In this document: positions 14,557 through 54,779 of the stretch, piece by piece
Position numbering within the stretch: the stretch's first letter is position 1
Layout: every line of letters starts with the position of its first letter
Sequence record: OL770107
DNA: 64,000 nucleotides
Strand: one strand, 5' to 3'
From: Escherichia phage CLB_P2
Translations under genes and position numbers: made by a program
The notes under the pieces: model-generated
What the model was told of the DNA's origin: nothing
The model's database searches: none
Seen by the model: only the letters and a program-made list of their open reading frames with translations

Positions 14557-14567
14557 GGCATTTAATG

Positions 14568-14596
14568 GTTTACAATGCCTTTAAACATGATACTAT
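14568..14596 (+). promoter_or_regulatory. early promoter cassette (PeSL-like)
   Basis: GTTTAC, 17 nt, TACTAT, then conserved TAGACC..CATGAGGAAATAAAAATG leader with GAGGA RBS. Confidence 0.5.
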
Positions 14597-14625
14597 AGAC
14601 CTATCAACTACATGAGGAAATAAAA

Positions 14626-15381: not shown

Positions 15382-15642
15382 ATGACTAAAGATGATTTCC
15401 TGGATGCCGTAGAAAAAGCCAGTGAGAAATTTGAAGTGATGGGTGTACGAGTTCATAAAGACCGAAATTATGGGCTCGATGTCCAAACGTATTCGTTATG
15501 GCTTGTAGGTGAACATAGTCTTGTAACCAGCTTAGTTATGGGTGTTGATGCTCAACCCTTACTGGTTAAATTTAGAAGTATGGAAAAAGCTACCAAAGAA
15601 ATGATTAAGCTTGGTAAATGGCTTGATAAAATTCAAAAATAA
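15382..15642 (+). CDS. hypothetical protein
   Basis: About 86-aa ORF from ATG at 15382 (table ORF extends upstream into the previous gene). Confidence 0.4.
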
Positions 15643-15644
15643 GT

Positions 15645-15673
15645 GTTTACAAGGTCTGTAGATATGATACTAT
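15645..15673 (+). promoter_or_regulatory. early promoter cassette (PeSL-like)
   Basis: GTTTAC, 17 nt, TACTAT, leader ..CTATCAACTAATGAGGAAAATAAAATG. Confidence 0.5.
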
Positions 15674-15701
15674 AGACCTATCAACTAATGAGGAAAATAA
15701 A

Positions 15702-15929
15702 ATGGCTAAGGTTAATATTGATATCGTTGATTTTGAATACACTTACGAAGTTATCCGTAATCGTTATCCTTCTTTGACTATGACTTATATCAAAGACACA
15801 CAATTCTGTAGTATGCAAATTGAAGTTCAAGGTCCTCTTGAAGACCTTACCCGCTTTATGGCTGATGAATATTGTGATGGTATGCATGCTGAAGACGCTG
15901 AATTTTATATGGGCTTAATTCAAAAATAA
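15702..15929 (+). CDS. hypothetical protein
   Basis: 75-aa ORF with cassette promoter and GAGGA RBS. Confidence 0.45.
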
Positions 15930-15931
15930 GT

Positions 15932-15961
15932 GTTTACCTAAGGCTATGGTAGTGATACTAT
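15932..15961 (+). promoter_or_regulatory. early promoter cassette (PeSL-like) with hairpin
   Basis: GTTTAC, 18 nt, TACTAT; inverted repeat AAGGCTAT...ATAGCCTT brackets the -10 region. Confidence 0.5.
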
Positions 15962-15987
15962 AGCCTTATCAACTTGAGGAGAATAAA

Positions 15988-16227
15988 ATGAAATTACAAC
16001 GCGAATCAATCAAAGATTCTGAAGTTAAAGGCAAATGGTACTTCACAATCCAAGGTAACAATCCGGAAGCTCTGGAAAAAGCCGAACAAGCTTTGTGTGA
16101 AATGGGTTGGAAAGATGAGTGTGATGGGTGTCCTCTTTATGAAGATGGTAGCTCATCTGGTTTCTGGATTCACCATTCTGATGTTGACCAATTTAAAGCC
16201 GACTGGAAAGTCGCTAAGAAAGCGTGA
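15988..16227 (+). CDS. hypothetical protein (Cys-rich)
   Basis: 79-aa ORF; CEMGWKDECDGCP motif. Confidence 0.45.
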   Translation: MKLQRESIKDSEVKGKWYFTIQGNNPEALEKAEQALCEMGWKDECDGCPLYEDGSSSGFWIHHSDVDQFKADWKVAKKA

Positions 16228-22532: not shown

Positions 22533-23677
22533 TTGAATTATATGATAACTTGATGACTTTGGTTAAAAACTCGACTAAATCTAAGTTCTTCTTTAAAGAC
22601 TTCCAGAGTGCGCTAGGAGTCAACTATCGCATCTTTAGTTATAACTATGCATCGTACAGTGATTGGTTGGAAGACGGCGCACTAGAGTGCCGAGGCATTA
22701 TGTTTGAAATGGACGAGAATGGTCCTGTACGTATCGCTGCTCGTCCTATGCAAAAGTTCTTTAATCTCGATGAAAACCCACTGACTATTGGTTTGGATTT
22801 ATCACAAGAAAATATTGATTTGGTTATGGCCAAGGAAGATGGTTCCTTGATTTCTACCTTCATGGATAGACAATATCTTTCTGTTAAATCTAAAGGCTCT
22901 ATCCATTCATCGATGGTACATGATTCTTTACGTTTCCTTCGTCTCCCTGAAAACGAGGCCTTCGCTGCTCGTTTAGAAGAAATTACTAAAGCAGGCTATA
23001 CATGTAACCTCGAGTATGTTTCGCCTACTAACCGTATTGTGCTGGCATACCAAGAAACAAACCTTATCTTACTGAACGTTCGTAATAACGAAACAGGTGA
23101 GTATATCCCTTACGCTGAACTGTTTAAAGATGGCGCTCTGCGTAAGCATTTGGTTAAAAGCTATGAACTCGCTGAAGGTGATTTTGTTGACAATATCCGT
23201 AAACAAGAGGGTATTGAAGGCTTTATCTTTGTACTTAAAGATGGCACGTTCTTTAAACTCAAAACCGCTTGGTATAGCGCACTGCATCATACCAAAGATT
23301 CCATTAACAATAACGAACGTTTGTTTGAAGTTGTAGTGGCTGGTGGAACCGATGACCTCCGAGGTTTGTTCAGTACTGATTCATTTGCTATTGAGAAAAT
23401 CAATGCATTTGAACGTATTCATTTAGACTACTTAGAACAGTCCTTGGCTTTGTTAGAAGCAGCATATTCTCAGCTCAAGGGTCGTGACCGTAAAGACTAC
23501 GCTGTTACCGGTCAGTTAATCCTCAAAGACTTCCCAGGGCTGTTCTCTATTCTTATGCAGGCGTACGTAGGCGGTATTAATTATGATACGGTCGTAGACC
23601 AGATTAACTCTGTGTTCTTGAAAAATCATAAGGCCCAAATCCCTGAAAAATATTTGAAAGAAATTGTGATAGAGTAG
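22529..23677 (+). CDS. rnlA: RNA ligase 1
   Basis: 382-aa ORF; N-terminal block [28 protein letters not shown] as in T4 Rnl1; KEDGSL adenylation lysine motif; ATGA overlap with denA. Confidence 0.85.
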   Translation: [382 protein letters not shown]

Positions 23678-23705
23678 TTTACATCTCCTCATGATGTGTT
23701 AGTAT
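23677..23705 (+). promoter_or_regulatory. early promoter cassette (PeSL-like)
   Basis: GTTTAC, 17 nt, TAGTAT; inverted repeat CTCCTCAT...ATGAGGAG spans promoter to RBS. Confidence 0.45.
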
Positions 23706-23735
23706 AGACTTACCAACTAATGAGGAGAAAACAAA

Positions 23736-30065: not shown

Positions 30066-30314
30066 ATGAACAAACATCTGAATCACGCTCTTGAACTGCA
30101 ACGCAACGCTTGGAACAACGGCCACGAAAACTATGGTGCATCTATTGATGTTGAAGCCGAAGCACTGGAAATCCTGCGTTATTTCAAACATCTTAATCCT
30201 GCTCAGGCTACTCTGGCTGCTGAACTGGAAGCAAAAGATGAACTGAAATATGCTAAGCCTTTGGCTTCAGCAGCTCGTAAAGCAGTACGTCATTTTATTA
30301 TTACCCTGAAGTAA
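30066..30314 (+). CDS. rIII: rIII-like lysis-inhibition accessory protein (positional call)
   Basis: 82-aa ORF in the position rIII occupies next to gene 31 in T4; no motif confirmation. Confidence 0.5.
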   Translation: MNKHLNHALELQRNAWNNGHENYGASIDVEAEALEILRYFKHLNPAQATLAAELEAKDELKYAKPLASAARKAVRHFIITLK

Positions 30315-30667
30315 AATCGAGGAGCCGTCGAACTGTCTGATTAATGATTTGCGAATCATTATAGTTTTAAGACCCCGGCAGTTTTACGGTGTACCTCTTG
30401 AATGTTATTTTATAGCGGCAAGTGCATGCTACCCCGAGGTGATGGCCAATCGGGAGTACGCCTCAAGGCCTATATACCCATCAGTATATATCTTATCCTC
30501 GAGAAATCGAACCCGGAACCTTTAAGCTAACGGTGTGCAACAGATAAGAGCTATGATGACGAGGTTTATGGTTATCCTGTCGTTAAATATCCGAAACCTA
30601 TGTTCCCCTTGAGGGCTTGCGCAGGCAACGCCAATAAGTCCTGCATTCTAATTTAAGAGATTTAAAA

Positions 30668-30829
30668 ATGGCTAAGAAAGAAGTTAAAGTAGTTGACGGA
30701 ACCTCTAAACGCGCTGGTTACAAGCGTGCGTCTAACAAGCGTATCAATCAGGTAGTTGATAAGCTTCAAGCTCGTGCTCGTGCAGTATTGCGTGCAGATG
30801 CTGCTTGCTTCGGTAAAGTTATTGCATAA
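30668..30829 (+). CDS. small basic protein (53 aa)
   Basis: Below the ORF-track cutoff; read by eye: MAKKEVKVVDGTSKRAGYKRASNKRINQVVDKLQARARAVLRADAACFGKVIA; AAGAG RBS; followed by a strong terminator. Confidence 0.35.
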   Translation: MAKKEVKVVDGTSKRAGYKRASNKRINQVVDKLQARARAVLRADAACFGKVIA

Positions 30830-30834
30830 GTTAT

Positions 30835-30860
30835 GGGACTCTTCGGAGTCCCATTTTTGT
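30835..30860 (+). terminator. rho-independent terminator
   Basis: GGGACTC-TTCG-GAGTCCC followed by ATTTTTGTTT. Confidence 0.7.
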
Positions 30861-30880
30861 TTCTAAATCTTTAAAAAAAG

Positions 30881-30909
30881 GTATACATCTCCGGTAGGCA
30901 TGATACTAT
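30881..30909 (+). promoter_or_regulatory. early promoter cassette (PeSL-like)
   Basis: GTATAC, 17 nt, TACTAT, followed by the 37-nt leader GTACCAAATAATACGAAAACAAACTGGAGAATAAAATG. Confidence 0.45.
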
Positions 30910-30950
30910 AGACATGTACCAAATAATACGAAAACAAACTGGAGAATAAA

Positions 30951-31319
30951 ATGAAAATCAATCTTAACTCATACATCAAAGGTAAAGACCACGACGGTTA
31001 CAAAGCCATTGAAACTAAAGAGATGCAATGGCGCTTGTACAAAGAACAATTTGAATTTGTAGGTTGTATGACTCCTGAAGGTCCTTCCGATGACTTCTCT
31101 TGGAAAATTTTGGTAACAAACTTTTTTACTGGCGATACCTACGAACTGAAAACTATCATAACCGGTAAGATTCGTTGTAAGACCTATGAAGATGAAGAAA
31201 CCGGTTATTCTGAAGATGTTACATGGTATCAAAATGGTCGTATCACTACAGATAACCTGATCGAAAAAATGAATGCCAAAGGTGAATTAAATTTAGATAA
31301 TTGGATTAAAGTTGCATAA
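30951..31319 (+). CDS. hypothetical protein
   Basis: 122-aa ORF behind cassette leader with GGAG RBS. Confidence 0.45.
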   Translation: MKINLNSYIKGKDHDGYKAIETKEMQWRLYKEQFEFVGCMTPEGPSDDFSWKILVTNFFTGDTYELKTIITGKIRCKTYEDEETGYSEDVTWYQNGRITTDNLIEKMNAKGELNLDNWIKVA

Positions 31320-31323
31320 AACG

Positions 31324-31352
31324 GTTTACTTTGGTACAGGTTGTGTTATTAT
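31324..31352 (+). promoter_or_regulatory. early promoter cassette (PeSL-like) with hairpin
   Basis: GTTTAC, 17 nt, TATTAT; inverted repeat GGTACAGGT...ACCTGTACC; same 37-nt leader as the cassette at 30881. Confidence 0.5.
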
Positions 31353-31393
31353 AGACCTGTACCAAATAATACGAAAACAAACTGGAGAATAAA

Positions 31394-31759
31394 ATGAACT
31401 ACATCAACTTCGAACGTAAATATGTTTCTAACGGTATCGCTGGTTCTTCTGAAGTTATTTGTCTGTGGAAACACAACAACGGCACAGTGTGTGAAATCGA
31501 ACAGTGCATGACTCCTAACTACGTTTATATGCGCTTTGAAAATGGTATCACAGTTTCAATCACTATGGAAGGTTCTACTTTTAAAATCGCTTTGGACGAT
31601 GATTTCCGTCAACGTGATTTAGGTACCCATCCTTGCTGGAACGGTTCTAATCGTAAGCTTCTGGTTAAAACCTGGATTCGTCACATCCTGAGCAACCGTG
31701 CTAAACCTGAACACCTGGAAGCAATCTTTGATGTAGTTCTGAATGAATTTGATATCTAA
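31394..31759 (+). CDS. hypothetical protein
   Basis: 121-aa ORF behind the identical leader. Confidence 0.45.
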   Translation: MNYINFERKYVSNGIAGSSEVICLWKHNNGTVCEIEQCMTPNYVYMRFENGITVSITMEGSTFKIALDDDFRQRDLGTHPCWNGSNRKLLVKTWIRHILSNRAKPEHLEAIFDVVLNEFDI

Positions 31760-31770
31760 TCTTAAAAATG

Positions 31771-31790
31771 GAGGCTTCGGCCTCCTTTGA
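31771..31790 (+). terminator. hairpin terminator
   Basis: GGAGGC-TTCG-GCCTCC followed by TTTGAGG. Confidence 0.45.
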
Positions 31791-31800
31791 GGAAAATATT

Positions 31801-32088
31801 ATGTTTATGACCACTTATTTCGATACTCGTAAAAATTTCTGTGAAGTTGTTTTCTCTAAGGCAGGTAAAGATGTTCCTGCTGAAAAACAGCCTACTCGTG
31901 AATCCATTAAGGCTTATGCTGATGTGGTTTGTCCAGTAGAATTCCGTACAGTCAATGGTCGTGACACCCTAGCAATCACTAAGCTCAACCATGATATTAA
32001 CATCGACCCTAGCGCTGCCCGTGAAGTCAATACTTCTGACATCTACGGTGGTAATGTTAAATCACATGGATTTCAGATGAGGTTCTAA
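31801..32088 (+). CDS. hypothetical protein
   Basis: About 95 aa from ATG at 31801 with GAGGA RBS; the table ORF start at 31768 would include the terminator hairpin. Confidence 0.4.
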   Translation: MFMTTYFDTRKNFCEVVFSKAGKDVPAEKQPTRESIKAYADVVCPVEFRTVNGRDTLAITKLNHDINIDPSAAREVNTSDIYGGNVKSHGFQMRF

Positions 32089-32282
32089 TGCAACTATTCT
32101 TATCACAAACCGTTCAGCTAAAAGGCATAGGTATTCCTGGTATGATTTCAAAGGTTTTACCTGCTTTTAAATTAGGTAATGCTACTATTAAAGAAGCCTA
32201 CACCGTCCTATGGGTCGATGGCACTGAAGACGTTCGCATGGGTTCTGAATTGTCTGTAATCAAATGTTTGAAGCGAGGATAA
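32088..32282 (+). CDS. hypothetical protein
   Basis: 64-aa ORF. Confidence 0.35.
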   Translation: MQLFLSQTVQLKGIGIPGMISKVLPAFKLGNATIKEAYTVLWVDGTEDVRMGSELSVIKCLKRG

Positions 32283-35590: not shown

Positions 35591-37651
35591 ATGACCGAAC
35601 AATTGAATGAGGTGTTTGAGTCCGAAGGCACCCTGCCTACTGTAAACTTAAACCCAAAACTTAAAGTACCCCAGATTTGGAAGATTGGCGATGCTGAATC
35701 CCAATTGGTTGCTCGTATGGTATCTTATGCCTCTGAAGGCGATGCTATTAAACAGGTTAAATTAGGTGATAAATACGCCCACGTTATCCTTATGAGCCTT
35801 TCAGCTAAAGGTTCTCCAGCCGAACTTAAAGGCGGCCTAGGCCCTACTCCTATTGATGCTATCAATACCATTTTCGACGTAGTATTCGAACAAGTTAAAA
35901 AGCTTCGTATGGATGCAGTGATGTTCCGTTTTCCAACCAAGAAAATGAAAGGACAAGGCCCTATTGTCCAACGGATTATCCAACGTTTGGTAGCACAGAA
36001 AACCGGTGGACGTTTTAAAGTAGTTCCTGCTATGTACCAATTTACCGGTAAACATACTTATATCCTAGTAGTTCGTAAACAAGCTGATATCGAAGATATC
36101 AAAGGTATGCCAGGAATTAATTCCGAATTATACACTAAGGTAGATTCTGATGTCGGTGAAGTTTATATTTCTAAAAAAGAAGGCGTACAGGTTACTAAAG
36201 AAACTGCTATTGCCGGCAGTATTGCCAAAGTTGAAGAACGTCGCACTGATAAAATGGTTATAACCAAGACTAAGATTTCTCGTCGCGCTATTGCAGCAAG
36301 CCAGTCTTTAGAATCCTATCGTAATGAAAGTGAACTGTTTAAGAAATATGAAGCCACTGCCGCTGATTTTAATAAACCGGCAACAGCTCCATTAATCCCT
36401 GAGGCCCAGGAAATGGTCACCAATAACAATTCTCCTGCGGCTAAAAATAAAGTTGCTAATATAGTAGCTGAAGGCACTGCTGAAGAGTTGCATTACGATT
36501 ATAAAATGTTTCCTCTTCACGGTATAGGTGAAATCCAAGAGAAAATTAAAGAGAAAATCCTTACAGCCATCAAAAACGAACCTTTGACATCTGTTAAAGC
36601 TCTAGAAAAATATGCCTCTGTTATTAATACAGTTTTTGAAGAATATAAAGGCGAATGGCTGGCTATACATAACAAAACTCGTAAAGGTCAACCTGACGAC
36701 GTCTGGAATGAATTAACCGAGTCCAAGTGGAAAGCCGCTAAGACCAAGTTCATTAAAAAACGTGTTTATAGTTTTGCTGGTGTAGGTGGCGGTATTATGG
36801 TTGATATTACTTTAGGTCATAGTGCAGATAAATACACCCCTTCTCAAAAACGTGGTATTCGTGAATATTGTGGCTCCGGATATGGCGATATCAATAACCT
36901 TCTTTTAGGACGATATAATCCTCAGAACTATGAAGTTATGAGCGAAAAAGATATCGAATCTGCAGTTAATAATTTGGATTCTGCTTTTGAAAACGGTGAT
37001 AGATTACCTGAAGGCATCACAGTTTATCGTGCACAGAGTATGACGTGGGCCATATATAATGCTTTAGTCAAAAATAAAGTATTCTATTTTAGAAACTTTG
37101 TATCAACTTCACTGACCCCTATTATTTTCGGTCGTTTTGGTGTTACTCATGCCGGTGTAGGTCTTTTAGAGCCTGAAGTTAGAGCCGAACTTACTGTAGA
37201 TAAAAATGATGAAGGTTATACTAAGGTCCAAGGTTCCGGCGACAAATTGGTTAAAGTTGGTTGGGCCATTGACGGTGCTTCTAAAGTTAACGTGGTATTC
37301 CCAGGACAACTTGGTATTGCTACTGAAGCTGAAATCATTCTTCCGCGCGGACTAATGGTAAAAATTAATAAGATAACAGATGCATCTAATAATGATGGTA
37401 TAATATCCAACAATACAAAACTCATTCAAGCTGAAGTTATGACATCAGATGAGCTTCAAGAATCTGTAGTGTATGATGGTGACGTACTAATGGAAACCGG
37501 TGAATTGGTTGTATACCAAGATGACTTCGATACTTCCGAAAGCCCTGTATCTTTTGATTCATTTGTTAAATCTACACGGTTTGACGTACTGCCTCTTTTG
37601 GCTTCATGCATAGACCTCTATGACATACCAGAAAAATTCATCCAAGGGTAA
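35591..37651 (+). CDS. alt: Alt-like ADP-ribosyltransferase (paralog 1)
   Basis: 686 aa (T4 Alt 682 aa); LNE near N-terminus; C-terminal R-S-ExE motifs YRAQ, STS, EAEIILPRG; N-terminal 230 aa shared with paralog 2. Confidence 0.8.
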   Translation: MTEQLNEVFESEGTLPTVNLNPKLKVPQIWKIGDAESQLVARMVSYASEGDAIKQVKLGDKYAHVILMSLSAKGSPAELKGGLGPTPIDAINTIFDVVFEQVKKLRMDAVMFRFPTKKMKGQGPIVQRIIQRLVAQKTGGRFKVVPAMYQFTGKHTYILVVRKQADIEDIKGMPGINSELYTKVDSDVGEVYISKKEGVQVTKETAIAGSIAKVEERRTDKMVITKTKISRRAIAASQSLESYRNESELFKKYEATAADFNKPATAPLIPEAQEMVTNNNSPAAKNKVANIVAEGTAEELHYDYKMFPLHGIGEIQEKIKEKILTAIKNEPLTSVKALEKYASVINTVFEEYKGEWLAIHNKTRKGQPDDVWNELTESKWKAAKTKFIKKRVYSFAGVGGGIMVDITLGHSADKYTPSQKRGIREYCGSGYGDINNLLLGRYNPQNYEVMSEKDIESAVNNLDSAFENGDRLPEGITVYRAQSMTWAIYNALVKNKVFYFRNFVSTSLTPIIFGRFGVTHAGVGLLEPEVRAELTVDKNDEGYTKVQGSGDKLVKVGWAIDGASKVNVVFPGQLGIATEAEIILPRGLMVKINKITDASNNDGIISNNTKLIQAEVMTSDELQESVVYDGDVLMETGELVVYQDDFDTSESPVSFDSFVKSTRFDVLPLLASCIDLYDIPEKFIQG

Positions 37652-37654
37652 ATA

Positions 37655-39778
37655 ATGGAAAATTTAAACGAAGTTTTTGATAGTGATTCCGCTAAAAACT
37701 ATCCAGTAACAAATCTTAAGCCAGGCTCAGGTATCCCACAGATTTTCTCTATCCAAGCACCAGGTAATGATAACCTGGTTGCTCGTATGGTATCTTATGC
37801 GTCTCAAGGAGACGCTATTAAAATGGTTAAGCCTGGCGACAAATATGTCCACGTTATTCTAATGAGTTTGTCAAGCAAGGGTGCTCCGGCTGAACTCAAA
37901 GGTGGGCTTGGTTCCGACCCGCTTGGTGCATTGAATACTATTTTCGATACGATATATGAACAAGTAAACAAACTTAAAATGGATGCAGTTTTGTTCCGTT
38001 TCCCTACCAAGAAAATGAAAGGTAAGGGTCCTACTGTTCAGCGGGTATTAGCTCGTTTGGTGATGGCACGTACCGGTGGTAAGTTTAAAGTTGTTGATAA
38101 CATGTTCCAATTCAGTGGAAAACATACCTATGTTCTTTTAGTACGTCGCGGCACTAATATCGAAGATATCAAGGGTATGCCTGAAATTGATGCTGACCTT
38201 TATACCAAGGTTGAGTCTAAAGTTGGTGAAGTTTATGTTTCTAAGAAAACTGGCCGGGCCGTAAGTAAGGTCGAAGCCGTGGCGGCATCTATTGCACAGG
38301 TTGAAGAGAAACGTACCGATAAGGCTGTTATCTCTCGTACTAAGATTTCTCGTCGTATGGCTGCAGCAGCACAGTATTCTACTGCCGAACCTGAAACTTT
38401 ATCCCCTAAAGAATTGCAGGTTTATAATGAGTTTGAAGCTTCTGTACCTGTTCATTCGGCTGAAGGTCCTGAGAACGAAGGTATTGAACAAATTAGCCAG
38501 AACTTTAAAAAAGGTGCTATTACTAAAATGCGTCAGGCCTCTCAGTTTAAATCTAAGAGTGAGGACCTTGCCAACTTTAGATACACCATTGCTCTCACAC
38601 ACGCTTTAATGACTGATAGTAAATTTAAACTAAATTATGCTAATAGAGATAAACAAGGGTTTGAAATTTACTCTAATAATATGGCATTTTTTAATACGGA
38701 AGTCGATAGACTTTTAAGCGGCCTTTCTCAAATCAATACTACCAATAGTCTGGATATTATTAAGAGAATTGTTAATAACCTGAGTGCCCGTTTTCAGGGG
38801 TCTCCTTCAGAGAAAGCATCCCGAATTGCTTTCGCTATGGAAGCCGTTTATAAACTGATTAACGATTCTATTAGCGATGCATATGCTTATTCAGGCGAGC
38901 TCATTAAACCTAAGGGCTTGACCAAAGACGAAAGTAATGCCATTATTGAATATTGTGCGGCTGAATATGCTCCTATGAACTTATTCCTTTTAGGTAAACC
39001 TGAATCCGAAAACAATACAACAGCTATTAAATTGATTAAGGATTTAGACTCAGCATTTACCAAGGGTATTAAACTTCCTAAAGGTACTATTTTGTATCGT
39101 GGTCAGGATTTACCATACAAAATTCTGCGCCATAATATTGATAACAAAACCTTTTACTTTAAGAACTTTGTATCCGCTTCATTAAAGCCTAATATCTTTG
39201 GTGAATTTGGTAAAAATTATATGGCCCTCGACAACCAAGCAGTTTTTGTTGGTGATGAAGGTTCTTTATCCTCCGCCGATGAGTTGTTTAAATTGGCCAG
39301 TGGTAGTTCATCTGACGTAGGTGAAGTTGATGATGAAGAGGTAGAATGGGAAGAAGACGAGTTTGGTAATCCAATTGCACCTGAAGGCCCTGCAGACAGG
39401 ATTGCTGAAATTGGTATGGTTATTCGAGGTGCTGAAGCAGTTAAAGTTATCGCTCCTGGTGACCTTACAGAATATGCCGAAGAAGCGGAAATTATCCTTC
39501 CGCGCGGATTATTGTTGAAGGTTGATAAAGTAGCAGCTTTTGCTATGAATGATAGGGTATCTCACAAATACCTTATGGAAGCTACAGTGACATCTCCTTC
39601 AGAACTCAGTGAGTCCGTTTACGATGGTGACCATCTGATGGAAACCGGCGAAGTTAAATTGATGAATGGGTTTAAAGAATTCCTAGTTTCAGAATCTGTT
39701 TCAGAAAGTAACGAGGCTATGGAAATCCTTGCTGCATCTTTGGACATCTCTTCTTTACCAAATAAATTCAAAATGTAG
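37655..39778 (+). CDS. Alt-like ADP-ribosyltransferase (paralog 2)
   Basis: 707 aa; same N-terminal module and C-terminal YRGQ / SAS / EAEIILPRG motifs; unrelated central 250 aa and acidic insert DDEEVEWEEDEFG. Confidence 0.75.
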   Translation: MENLNEVFDSDSAKNYPVTNLKPGSGIPQIFSIQAPGNDNLVARMVSYASQGDAIKMVKPGDKYVHVILMSLSSKGAPAELKGGLGSDPLGALNTIFDTIYEQVNKLKMDAVLFRFPTKKMKGKGPTVQRVLARLVMARTGGKFKVVDNMFQFSGKHTYVLLVRRGTNIEDIKGMPEIDADLYTKVESKVGEVYVSKKTGRAVSKVEAVAASIAQVEEKRTDKAVISRTKISRRMAAAAQYSTAEPETLSPKELQVYNEFEASVPVHSAEGPENEGIEQISQNFKKGAITKMRQASQFKSKSEDLANFRYTIALTHALMTDSKFKLNYANRDKQGFEIYSNNMAFFNTEVDRLLSGLSQINTTNSLDIIKRIVNNLSARFQGSPSEKASRIAFAMEAVYKLINDSISDAYAYSGELIKPKGLTKDESNAIIEYCAAEYAPMNLFLLGKPESENNTTAIKLIKDLDSAFTKGIKLPKGTILYRGQDLPYKILRHNIDNKTFYFKNFVSASLKPNIFGEFGKNYMALDNQAVFVGDEGSLSSADELFKLASGSSSDVGEVDDEEVEWEEDEFGNPIAPEGPADRIAEIGMVIRGAEAVKVIAPGDLTEYAEEAEIILPRGLLLKVDKVAAFAMNDRVSHKYLMEATVTSPSELSESVYDGDHLMETGEVKLMNGFKEFLVSESVSESNEAMEILAASLDISSLPNKFKM

Positions 39779-53273: not shown

Positions 53274-54779
53274 TTAAAACGTGCTCATATTGGTATGGTC
53301 TTCGACAGAAAATAAAACTTCAACAGGGATATCTGTAGTCGTATTAAGAGGGCCGCCTACAATAAACACAGATACAGTGTAGTATTTTCTAGTATCACGG
53401 TCAAATATTTCGTAACGGTTAAATTGTCTTGCACTAGAATAAGCCAAATCGTCGAATAATTCAGGAGATGATGACCACAACACATTACTCCAGTTGGCAC
53501 ATTCTATTCCGTTTTCATAGTTGGTAAATCTTTTAATATCAAGCCTATTAGTAAGACCTGCATTAGTAGCCCTTATATGGATGCCTACAGATGAGTACAT
53601 GCGAACATGAAGAACCATATTAAGGTCCCACAAACGTATTTCCTTCCACTCTGAAGTGTTCAGAGGCTTATCAAATCTTAAAGAGCCTTTCCAATATCTA
53701 GGTGGATAGAATGGGAAAAGTTTATCATATAAAGATTTTAATTGAGACTGGGTTAAAGAATCGACATCAAATACTGCATCTTTGCCTGGCGCACCTGCAG
53801 GACCTATAGGACCTTGAATACCTTGAGGACCTTGATCGCCTTTTTCACCTTTAGGTCCTGGATTACCTTGTGGACCCTGCGGCCCTTGAGCACCGGGCGC
53901 GCCATCTTCTCCTGGATATCCAGGTCTTCCTTCTTGTACAAACAAATGCCAATAATCAACCCATAGGTCTCCACGGCCTGGATAACTATCATTATTTGCT
54001 ATATTGTCCTGAATACAAATCCAAGAAGACCCTTCGCACTGGACTAAATCATTTACATAATAAGGTGTGCCAGGGTCCCAGTTTCCGGCCCAGATAAACC
54101 CATTACCATCTTGGCCTGGCGCGCCTTGTGGACCTTGAGGGCCGGTTGGGCCTGTTGGTCCTTGAGGACCTGGTGCACCGATATTAGCCAATAGCGCCCA
54201 AACTCCTTCGCTAGGAGGTATTGTTCCTGTATTAGAACTGATGCAAAAATAAGAAGCTCCCTGGTATCCAACTGCATCGTCTTTAGAGTATTGGGTAGAT
54301 TCATCCCAGGCTCCCTTCCACACCAAACCTGCCGGGCCTATAGGACCTTGTGGTCCTTGCGGTCCTACTTCTCCTTGGGCCCCTTGTAAACCCTGAGGGC
54401 CTTCTTTTCCTGGTGAACCCGGGTCTCCTTTAGGACCTTCTGGACCTGCTGGTCCTGGTTCGCCCTTTTCTCCTTTAGGACCCGGGTTACCTTGAATACC
54501 TTGCGGCCCTGGGTCTCCTTTAGGGCCTTGTGGACCTTCAGTACCAGGTGTTAGCATCTCATTAGTTATACCTAAATGGGCCAACGCGCCTTCCCTAGAA
54601 GCTTGTTTTATAAATTCAAGTCCATAACTTTGAGAAGAATCCAACATAGTAGGGTCTAAGGTGCTTTCACTAGTGAGTATGTCTGCAAATTCCAATGATT
54701 TATCCTGCGGAACTTCTACTAATGATACGCCTCTAAAGTGACCTCTACCGTCATGCCCGTATAATGGATTGTCTGACAT
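53274..54779 (-). CDS. collagen-like triple-helix repeat protein with Trp/Tyr-rich interspersed modules
   Basis: 501 aa; three Gly-X-Y blocks (about 24, 9 and 17 triplets) separated by two 50-aa modules (W.GAWD...Y..D.V.Y.G..Y.C...P....W); 180-aa C-terminal globular region. Confidence 0.8.

Follow-up and report, generated by a model that had tools for sequence, protein, structure and literature searches.

A shared early leader in adjacent PeSL-like cassettes of genes 30.8 and 30.7 in Escherichia phage CLB_P2

PeSL elements have been defined in RB49/phi1, T4/PST and KVP40/nt-1 (Arbiol et al. 2010, PMC2839356; Comeau et al. 2014, PMC4122927) and consist of an AT-rich stretch, a sigma-70-like early promoter, a stem-loop, a Shine-Dalgarno sequence and a start codon. 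The stem-loop is located upstream of the promoter in T4/PST and between or over the -35 and -10 boxes in RB49/phi1. PeSLs cluster in plastic regions where the flanking open reading frames (ORFs) are unlike in close relatives, and their crossovers and mini-circle junctions have been mapped between the -10 box and the ATG. A 64,000-nucleotide stretch of Escherichia phage CLB_P2 (record OL770107), referred to below as the window, carries one identical leader ahead of both of the neighbouring genes 30.8 and 30.7, and this arrangement matches a pair of cassettes of the described PeSL kind. The repeat is probably the promoter-proximal part (-10 box, 5' untranslated region (5'UTR) and start codon) of these adjacent PeSL-type cassettes, in which a site for the RegB endoribonuclease would be selected, the rest would have been homogenised and the cassettes would serve as exchange joints. 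As far as the literature examined shows, PeSLs have not been described before for the JS98 group of phages or for the 30.8/30.7 pair.

For T4, a UP/-35/TGn/-10 layout of early promoters has been described (PMC2988021). Durand et al. (2006, PMC1702504) assayed almost every intergenic GGAG/U motif of this phage for cleavage by RegB. Efficient cleavage by RegB with ribosomal protein S1 requires a single-stranded 11-mer, GGAGAAUAAAA, with the degenerate form GGAGRAYARAA (PMC1702504), and this 11-mer is usually the Shine-Dalgarno sequence of an early gene (PMC1702504; reviewed by Uzan and Miller 2010, PMC3014915). A GGAU variant is still cleavable when the strict A-rich sequence follows.

The repeat and its two cassettes

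The window belongs to Dhakavirus (JS98 group): it agrees with Dhakavirus CLBP2 (OZ035781.1) at 100% identity and with phage JS98 at 96%. The JS98 annotation gives the gene order 31, rIII, 30.9, 30.8, 30.7 ... 30 (DNA ligase), all on the + strand of the window. Coordinates of the features of this region are collected in Table 1.

An exact search of the window located a 38-mer, GTACCAAATAATACGAAAACAAACTGGAGAATAAAATG, in two + strand copies (30916-30953 and 31359-31396). A sequence-only reading of the same DNA had described a 37-nt leader identical at 30915-30953 and 31358-31396; the identity holds, its 5' coordinate was one base off, and the 38-mer comprises a 35-nt leader plus the ATG. Since the first G of the repeat sits 7 nt past each -10 box, the exact repeat is equivalent to the whole predicted 5'UTR together with the start codon. 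Similarity of the copies runs on upstream to give a 55-nt repeat, identical at 52 of 55 positions, from the -10 box to ATGAA (repeat finder). When the exact-repeat search proposed earlier was extended to related phages, the pair was recovered in dozens of them: 64 phage records matched the 55-mer with at least 95% identity, with two places in each such record among the matches listed, and the pair was present in JS98, Bp7, IME08, WG01 and others, amounting to more than 60 Dhakavirus records.

The promoter-like element that had been noted before each copy was in both cases a T4-type early promoter by sequence, with an architecture that fits the described T4 early promoters. The second cassette begins only 5 nt past the 30.8 stop codon. 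The predicted 30.7 promoter was also found by a generic sigma-70 scan and is conserved in T4, Mosigvirus and Gaprivervirus, while the -10 context of the 30.8 promoter, TGATACTATAGAC, recurs at four other early-promoter-like sites in the window. A pattern search and the repeat finder located the GTTTAC-N17/18-TGn-TAYTAT architecture at approximately nine other + strand sites in the window. No promoter features are annotated for the region in the T4 records NC_000866 and AF158101. The AT-rich region upstream of the -35 box is TTTAAAAAAA in the first cassette (30870-30879) and just TAAAAC after the 30.8 stop in the second; the longer A-tract of the first cassette may take the role of an UP element. 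The terminator hairpin of the first cassette folded at -15.7 kcal/mol (z=-4.35), a value reached by 0 of 200 shuffles, and it is invariant in five Dhakavirus genomes with an equivalent hairpin in T4.

Table 1. Positions of features in the cassette region and at related loci (window coordinates unless a locus handle precedes them)
Feature	Position	Strand	Details
Candidate structured RNA, ~133 nt	30417-30549	+	within the 353-nt rIII-30.9 spacer
Intrinsic-terminator hairpin, cassette 1, after 30.9 stop	30833-30859	+	9-bp stem, UUCG loop, T-run; hairpin at 30833-30854; terminator scan
A-tract TTTAAAAAAAG upstream of -35, UP-element position	30870-30880	+	read from sequence
Predicted early promoter of 30.8	30881-30909	+	-35 GTATAC (30881-30886), 17-nt spacer, TGa, -10 TACTAT (30904-30909)
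Repeat copy 1	30901-30955	+	55 nt: TGn, -10 box, 5'UTR, ATGAA
Predicted 5'UTR of 30.8, 35 nt	30916-30950	+	A-rich; start G30916, 7 nt past -10, from promoter geometry
Shine-Dalgarno and RegB/S1 consensus of 30.8, GGAGAATAAAA	30941-30951	+	exact 11-mer; last A is the A of ATG
Gene 30.8, long allele, 122 amino acids	30951-31319	+	Pfam PF06019, E=2.5e-41
Predicted early promoter of 30.7	31324-31352	+	-35 GTTTAC (31324-31329), 17-nt spacer, TGt, -10 TATTAT (31347-31352)
Promoter-embedded stem-loop of 30.7	31330-31366	+	arms TTTGGTACAGGT (31330-31341) / ACCTGTACCAAA (31355-31366); loop holds -10 box
Repeat copy 2	31344-31398	+	55 nt, 52/55 identical to copy 1
Shine-Dalgarno and RegB/S1 consensus of 30.7, GGAGAATAAAA	31384-31394	+	exact 11-mer; last A is the A of ATG
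Gene 30.7, 121 amino acids	31394-31759	+	Pfam PF06919, E=3.2e-52
30.7 hairpin arm class			GGTACAGG / CCTGTACC
30.7 hairpin arm class			GGTGAGGGTCT / AGACTCTCACC
30.7 hairpin arm class			GTGAGATAACA / TGTTATCTCAC
30.7 hairpin arm class			GCTGATTGA / TCAATCAGC
30.7 hairpin arm class			GCTGATTGAGTGT / ACACTCAATCAGC
30.7 hairpin arm class			CCTCCGTTGTAT / ATACAACGGAGA
Extra-ORF stretches	L027 1906-2908; L029 1905-2931; L030 1912-2998; L031 440-1442		
Extra-ORF stretches	L032 896-1429; L033 416-1470; L034 339-1425		

The RNA structure prediction suggested earlier for the leader was run and gave a fully unstructured RNA with a minimum free energy of 0 kcal/mol. Rfam returned no match in 30300-32200 at E up to 1 and none over the whole window at the gathering score. 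Pairing of CUCCGGU (30889-30895) with the 30.8 Shine-Dalgarno sequence was considered and rejected, its z of -1.86 not being significant and its position being upstream of the predicted transcription start.

Several characters are held in common with PeSLs. Both cassettes have a sigma-70-like -35/N17/-10 promoter and a Shine-Dalgarno sequence with an ATG at the 3' end, and a stem-loop is located upstream in the first cassette and around the -10 box in the second. The tandem copies lie in a plastic early-gene region and flank an ORF that differs between close relatives, and the zone of identity here, from the -10 box to the ATG, corresponds to the zone of PeSL crossovers. Unlike in PeSLs, identity between the copies is 100% along the entire 5'UTR, and the 30.7 stem-loop is without a U-tract.

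A second early promoter-leader family was observed on the + strand at 14563-14625, 15640-15702, 15928-15990 and 23672-23734. Its members share GTTTAC-N17-TGATACTATAGACCTATCAACTA(A)TGAGGA(A)AATAAAATG; compared with the reference copy (14563-14625), their identity over 63 nt is 60-79%. From their sequence, these look to be further PeSL-like elements with a shared leader type of their own, and the member at 15978 carries the exact RegB consensus.

The proposed operation of the two cassettes is as follows. The host sigma-70 RNA polymerase would start at about G30916 and about G31359, and the two resulting mRNAs would share an A-rich, unstructured leader of 35 nt that would allow efficient ribosome loading. 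The 11-mer at the end of each leader would act both as Shine-Dalgarno sequence and as an optimal RegB/S1 site, where RegB would cut GG^AG and turn both messages off soon after infection.

Proposed selection and copying along the leader

The 11-mer occupies the 3' end of the leader, with GGAG at 30941 and 31384 and the ATG at 30951 and 31394. In both copies GGA is followed by G, the alternative to U at this position, and positions 5-11 agree with RAYARAA in its optimum form AAUAAAA. As in T4 RegB/S1 sites, the sequence is identical to the consensus, is predicted to be single-stranded, serves as an early-type Shine-Dalgarno sequence and occurs in a genome with regB; unlike at those sites, cleavage here is a prediction, and the site covers 11 of the 38 identical nucleotides. 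The exact 11-mer was found only three times in the window, each time just past an early-promoter-like site and ending in a start codon. The site was unpaired in the predicted centroid structure of both 75-nt contexts, and the predicted minimum free energy structure of the 30.7 context paired GGAG in a weak 4-bp helix with a frequency of 0.03. The regB gene is annotated in JS98, and tblastn located a 99.3% identical gene at approximately 134167-134622 in OZ035781.1, which is the same genome and outside the window.

Every lineage sampled had a GGAG/U-AAUAAAA-AUG block ahead of 30.8 and another ahead of 30.7. The sample comprised T4 and four other Tequatrovirus loci, Mosigvirus, Gaprivervirus, ten Dhakavirus genomes, Winklervirus Kc304, Erwinia phage Virsaitis27, Serratia phage 92A1, Yersinia phage MHG19 and five metagenomic lineages. 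Only minor variants of the block were seen, with GGAU for GGAG in some 30.7 leaders. Because the block is kept on both genes in all of these lineages, selection on a common regulatory and translation-initiation site best accounts for the 3' end of the leader. The trans-acting factor is likely to be RegB with S1 rather than a classical repressor.

A different pattern was found for the other 25 nt, which are identical between the 30.8 and 30.7 leaders only in Dhakavirus. Upstream of the RegB site the two leaders are unrelated in T4 and in Gaprivervirus, so the identity in Dhakavirus is derived and not ancestral, and in Mosigvirus they agree just in the first ~8 nt and the last few. In Yersinia phage MHG19 the two leaders have 28 nt in common (TATATAACCTCAATCAGCAATACAACAA), and shorter common segments were found in two other sampled loci (14 nt in L030 and 10 nt in L032). 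The long identities of Dhakavirus (26 nt) and MHG19 (28 nt) are independent and unrelated in sequence. Across leader cores, the longest common substring had a mean of 12.3 nt within a genome compared to 7.1 nt between genomes (permutation p=0.0003), although the lineages in this test were not fully independent. The cross-lineage sample consisted of approximately 25 loci; IMG/VR scans with the single protein gp30.7 and with the alignment returned the same 14 loci only, and the wider sampling came from contigs encoding the proteins.

As leaders of one genome share more with each other than with those of other genomes, and do so with lineage-specific sequences, the pattern has the signature of repeated homogenisation of the two cassettes by gene conversion or unequal recombination. 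The sequence-only reading had offered recombination within the leader or selection on a shared 5'UTR site as the two possible origins; selection fits the 3' end, and recombination fits the rest. Under this explanation the 11-mer would be held by selection in all lineages, and the other 25 nt would be identical only through homologous recombination or gene conversion between the neighbouring cassettes in the Dhakavirus lineage.

An alternative for the same stretch is that the whole 35-nt leader is a specific operator for a Dhakavirus protein such as RegA, or for a small RNA co-regulating 30.8 and 30.7, with selection holding the identity. The leader copies are indeed nearly invariant across approximately 30 Dhakavirus genomes, and several other lineages also keep the 5' part of both leaders alike. 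Like the RegA operators of T4 and RB69, the leader is A/U-rich and unstructured with a poly(A) stretch that lies 5' of the AUG and overlaps it, and AAUAAAAUGAA is compatible with the A/U-rich, unstructured sites overlapping the AUG that have been described for RegA (PMC3014915). Unlike those operators, it has no match to the SELEX consensus AAAAUUGUUAUGUAA, and the definition of the operator is too loose for a test by sequence; because RegA has no sharp consensus, compatibility with a RegA site means little. Among genera in which both genes are retained with 85-97% identity, however, conservation does not extend to the 25-nt part. In VR5 (L023) and the metagenomic locus L035 the 3' third of the 30.7 leader has been replaced and now differs from their own 30.8 leader, and EcWhh-1, WG01, QL01 and IME281 have single substitutions confined to one copy. 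Together with the missing structure and the missing Rfam match, these observations make a whole-leader operator improbable.

The start of the leader overlaps a stem-loop embedded in the 30.7 promoter. This hairpin is a perfect inverted repeat with 12-nt arms that are 100% complementary, and its fold had a free energy of -22.5 kcal/mol (z=-4.56). The position is occupied by a hairpin in every lineage, with six different arm sequences (Table 1) that all fold (z -4.0 to -6.8, 0 of 200 shuffles for each). The arms are out of register between lineages, so conservation was judged by folds and shuffles per lineage in place of a column-wise covariation alignment. Since six different arm pairs all fold, whole arms have been replaced and the structure kept. 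The repeated leader's first 8 nt, GTACCAAA, form the 3' arm of this hairpin, and the 30.8 copy has the 3' arm without the 5' arm. This suggests that the GTACCAAA start is native to 30.7 and would have been copied from there to 30.8.

As it lacks a U-tract, the 30.7 stem-loop is unlikely to be a simple intrinsic terminator; it could be an attenuator, a protector of the 3' end of the upstream message or a signal at the DNA level. In the metagenomic lineage L032 (~1430-1500, upstream of 30.7) the 3' arm of the hairpin was observed to include the GGAG Shine-Dalgarno sequence (CCTCCGTTGTAT / ATACAACGGAGA, -23.4 kcal/mol, z=-6.8), and read-through transcripts of that locus would hide the ribosome-binding and RegB site in the hairpin.

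In several lineages the 30.8 leader begins with the sequence of the 3' arm of the 30.7 hairpin, even though that arm varies from one lineage to another (GTACCAAA in Dhakavirus, CTCAATCAGCAA in Yersinia phage MHG19 and L030, CTCAATAAAC in L032), and the 5' arm sits at the 3' end of the 30.8 message. It is conceivable, as a long shot, that the shared start and the hairpin together act as an RNA switch through which the two messages are linked in stability or translation. The 5' arm would then pair with the 5' end of the same 30.8 mRNA or with the 30.7 leader, for example to protect a 5' end or to define a 3' end after RegB cleavage.

The identical leaders could also be the remnant of an old tandem duplication of one promoter-leader-gene module, the proteins of which diverged beyond recognition. 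The proteins have nearly the same length (122 and 121 amino acids), both begin MK/MN after ATGAA, and BLASTP gave a weak local match over 28 amino acids (E=0.042) at the same position in each, around a CMTP tetrapeptide. The lack of obvious similarity that had been noted from the sequence was borne out by the other comparisons: a profile-profile probability of 0.7% was obtained with hhalign, and gp30.8 and gp30.7 belong to separate Pfam and PHROG families, so that remote homology was rejected on the BLASTP and hhalign results. The CMTP that had been singled out is conserved in neither family (the residues there are YMTP in T4 gp30.7 and VETTEG in the short 30.8 allele) and is a chance coincidence. 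AlphaFold models were confident (predicted local distance difference test scores of 90.6 and 85.2), and the predicted folds differ in the order of their secondary structures. No convincing structural neighbours of either model, and no PDB sequence or PADLOC matches for either protein, were found. Sampled homologues of gp30.7 in T4, Mosigvirus, Gaprivervirus and other T4-like phages aligned with 90-97% amino acid identity. With the leaders of T4 and Gaprivervirus unrelated upstream of the RegB site in addition, a duplication is very unlikely.

An assembly or sequencing artefact or a chance A-rich match, which has only the low complexity of the sequence in its favour, deserves practically no credence, as 0 of 100 dinucleotide shuffles of the window contained a 38-mer match and the same pair, its copies separated by allele-specific inserts, recurs in dozens of phages that were sequenced independently (more than 60 Dhakavirus records).

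Exchange of gene 30.8

Two alleles of 30.8 were found in Dhakavirus, of 122 and 110 amino acids, with 49% nucleotide identity to each other. The long allele is present here and in ABTNLsp5, IME341, IME08, dhaeg and Ec2-ASingh, and the short allele in JS98 and most other Dhakavirus genomes. The long allele is 91.6% identical to that of Gaprivervirus, and the short allele of JS98 is 78% identical to that of T4. Divergence of the alleles begins right past ATGAAAA and stops at the -35 box of the 30.7 promoter. Around it, nine of ten Dhakavirus genomes have intergenic cassettes 95-100% identical and 30.9 and 30.7 genes 93-100% identical to the window, the exception being VR5, where the second intergenic region (igr2) and 30.7 are at 86-89%.

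A four-gamete test was positive on both sides of 30.8: the 30.8 allele occurs in all four combinations with the 3'-end haplotype of 30.9 (eight linked differences), and likewise in all four with site 69 of 30.7. Recombination has therefore taken place within ~130-145 bp on each side of 30.8, and both of these intervals contain the repeated cassette. The conserved cassettes would act as patches of homology where phages swap the 30.8 ORF, presumably through general homologous recombination.

The exchange resembles the shuffling described for the internal-protein locus of T-even phages, where divergent or unrelated ORFs of an early-gene region are swapped between conserved regulatory flanks (Repoila et al. 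1994, as cited in PMC4122927); the locus here is a different one. It is also like that of integron cassettes, in which small single-ORF cargo is exchanged at conserved boundaries, and circular intermediates have been proposed for PeSLs. Unlike integron cassettes, there is no integrase and no attC here, and each cassette brings its own promoter.

One to two extra ORFs separate 30.8 from the 30.7 cassette in Winklervirus, Erwinia and Yersinia phages and in metagenomic T4-like lineages (Table 1). These encode 156-182 amino acids, have no Pfam match and no promoter of their own, and are preceded only by a small hairpin and a GAGG Shine-Dalgarno sequence. As they are found in distant genera, the 30.8/30.7 junction appears to be a hot spot of insertion and deletion.

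Several points weigh against the explanation by selected, homogenised and exchanged cassettes, besides the partial dependence of lineages in the permutation test. Loss of 30.8 through recombination between the repeats was searched for with a synthetic query joining the 30.8 promoter-leader to the 30.7 coding start, and no such deletion product, which sets the locus apart from PeSLs, was found among the 40 best records, all of which aligned in two pieces spanning 653-691 bp; the excision and mini-circle half of the PeSL model is consequently unsupported here. The -35 box of the 30.8 promoter is weak (GTATAC or GTGTAC) and was missed by the generic sigma-70 scan. Promoters, transcription starts and RegB cleavage in this phage are predictions, and the T4 30.8 and 30.7 sites could not be confirmed as belonging to the 26 RegB sites mapped by Durand et al. 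(PMC1702504). The direction of conversion of the central 17 nt is not resolvable, because short A-rich sequences resemble each other. We nevertheless regard PeSL-type cassettes with a selected RegB site and a homogenised remainder as the probable explanation of the repeat.

Neighbouring features and significance

A hairpin with a UUCG loop (GGAGGCTTCGGCCTCC, 31770-31785, + strand) was observed between 30.7 and 30.6, just ahead of the 30.6 Shine-Dalgarno sequence, with GGAG within its stem. A GGAG inside a stem belongs to a class reported to be resistant to RegB (PMC1702504). As no promoter is located between the two genes, 30.6 is probably co-transcribed with 30.7.

The spacer between rIII and 30.9 contains an element of ~133 nt that looks like an undescribed structured RNA of phages. 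In 406 T4-like phage records, which span many genera and include phages of Klebsiella, Escherichia, Enterobacter, Yersinia, Citrobacter, Serratia and Edwardsiella, it was found with 83-99% identity, always between rIII and 30.9 and in one copy per genome. The element is absent from T4. Most records leave it unannotated, and a few have a hypothetical protein over it. An RNAalifold consensus comprised 39 pairs in six helices, with a standard pair in 100% of cells and compensatory double changes at 10 pairs; none of 500 shuffles reached the observed values, and 26-41% of cells paired in slid controls. The element is not a tRNA or tmRNA and matched no Rfam 15 family. Its invariant 20-mer, GCTAACGGTGTGCAACAGAT, had no match in 185,579 bacterial and archaeal genomes and 18 matches in IMG/VR, all in viral contigs of 93-178 kb, several of which are T4-like phage genomes already sampled.

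Two further conserved non-coding modules were observed in this spacer. Module A (30315-30405, + strand) is located directly after rIII, is common to T4 and Gaprivervirus and has a multi-stem fold, and module C (30556-30667, + strand) is located just before 30.9 and was present in all coliphage genera compared. ABTNLsp5, WG01 and Gaprivervirus have an unrelated stretch of ~55 nt in place of the 133-nt element, and because the element is replaced in this way between conserved modules, the spacer is itself mosaic.

Elsewhere in the window, direct repeats were found downstream of the DNA ligase gene (35706-36178 and 37776-38248, and 37325-37396 and 39482-39553) with 72-80% identity and spacings of 2070 and 2157 nt, which suggests two or three tandem paralogous genes. 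The region 53784-54550 has dense 9-nt periodic repeats of the ACCTTGAGG type that give Gly-X-Y if read on the - strand, suggesting a collagen-like repeat region in a - strand gene.

For annotation, two probable RegB targets and two early promoters can be flagged in Dhakavirus genomes, and the 133-nt element may be more novel than the leader repeat. The repeat itself is an element ordinary for T4-type phages and overturns no current view; it extends the PeSL concept to the JS98 group, and adds to the PeSL picture a RegB/S1 site within the identity zone and a covariation of the promoter hairpin across genera, which argues that the PeSL stem-loop has a function of its own. Two forces would be separated on the 38-nt repeat, with selection acting on 11 nt and recombinational homogenisation on the remainder. 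The locus is a clean natural example of the exchange of small accessory genes in T4-type phages, in which short selected regulatory sequences (early promoter, hairpin and RegB/Shine-Dalgarno site) would double as homology patches, so that the ORF could be replaced and its expression left undisturbed.

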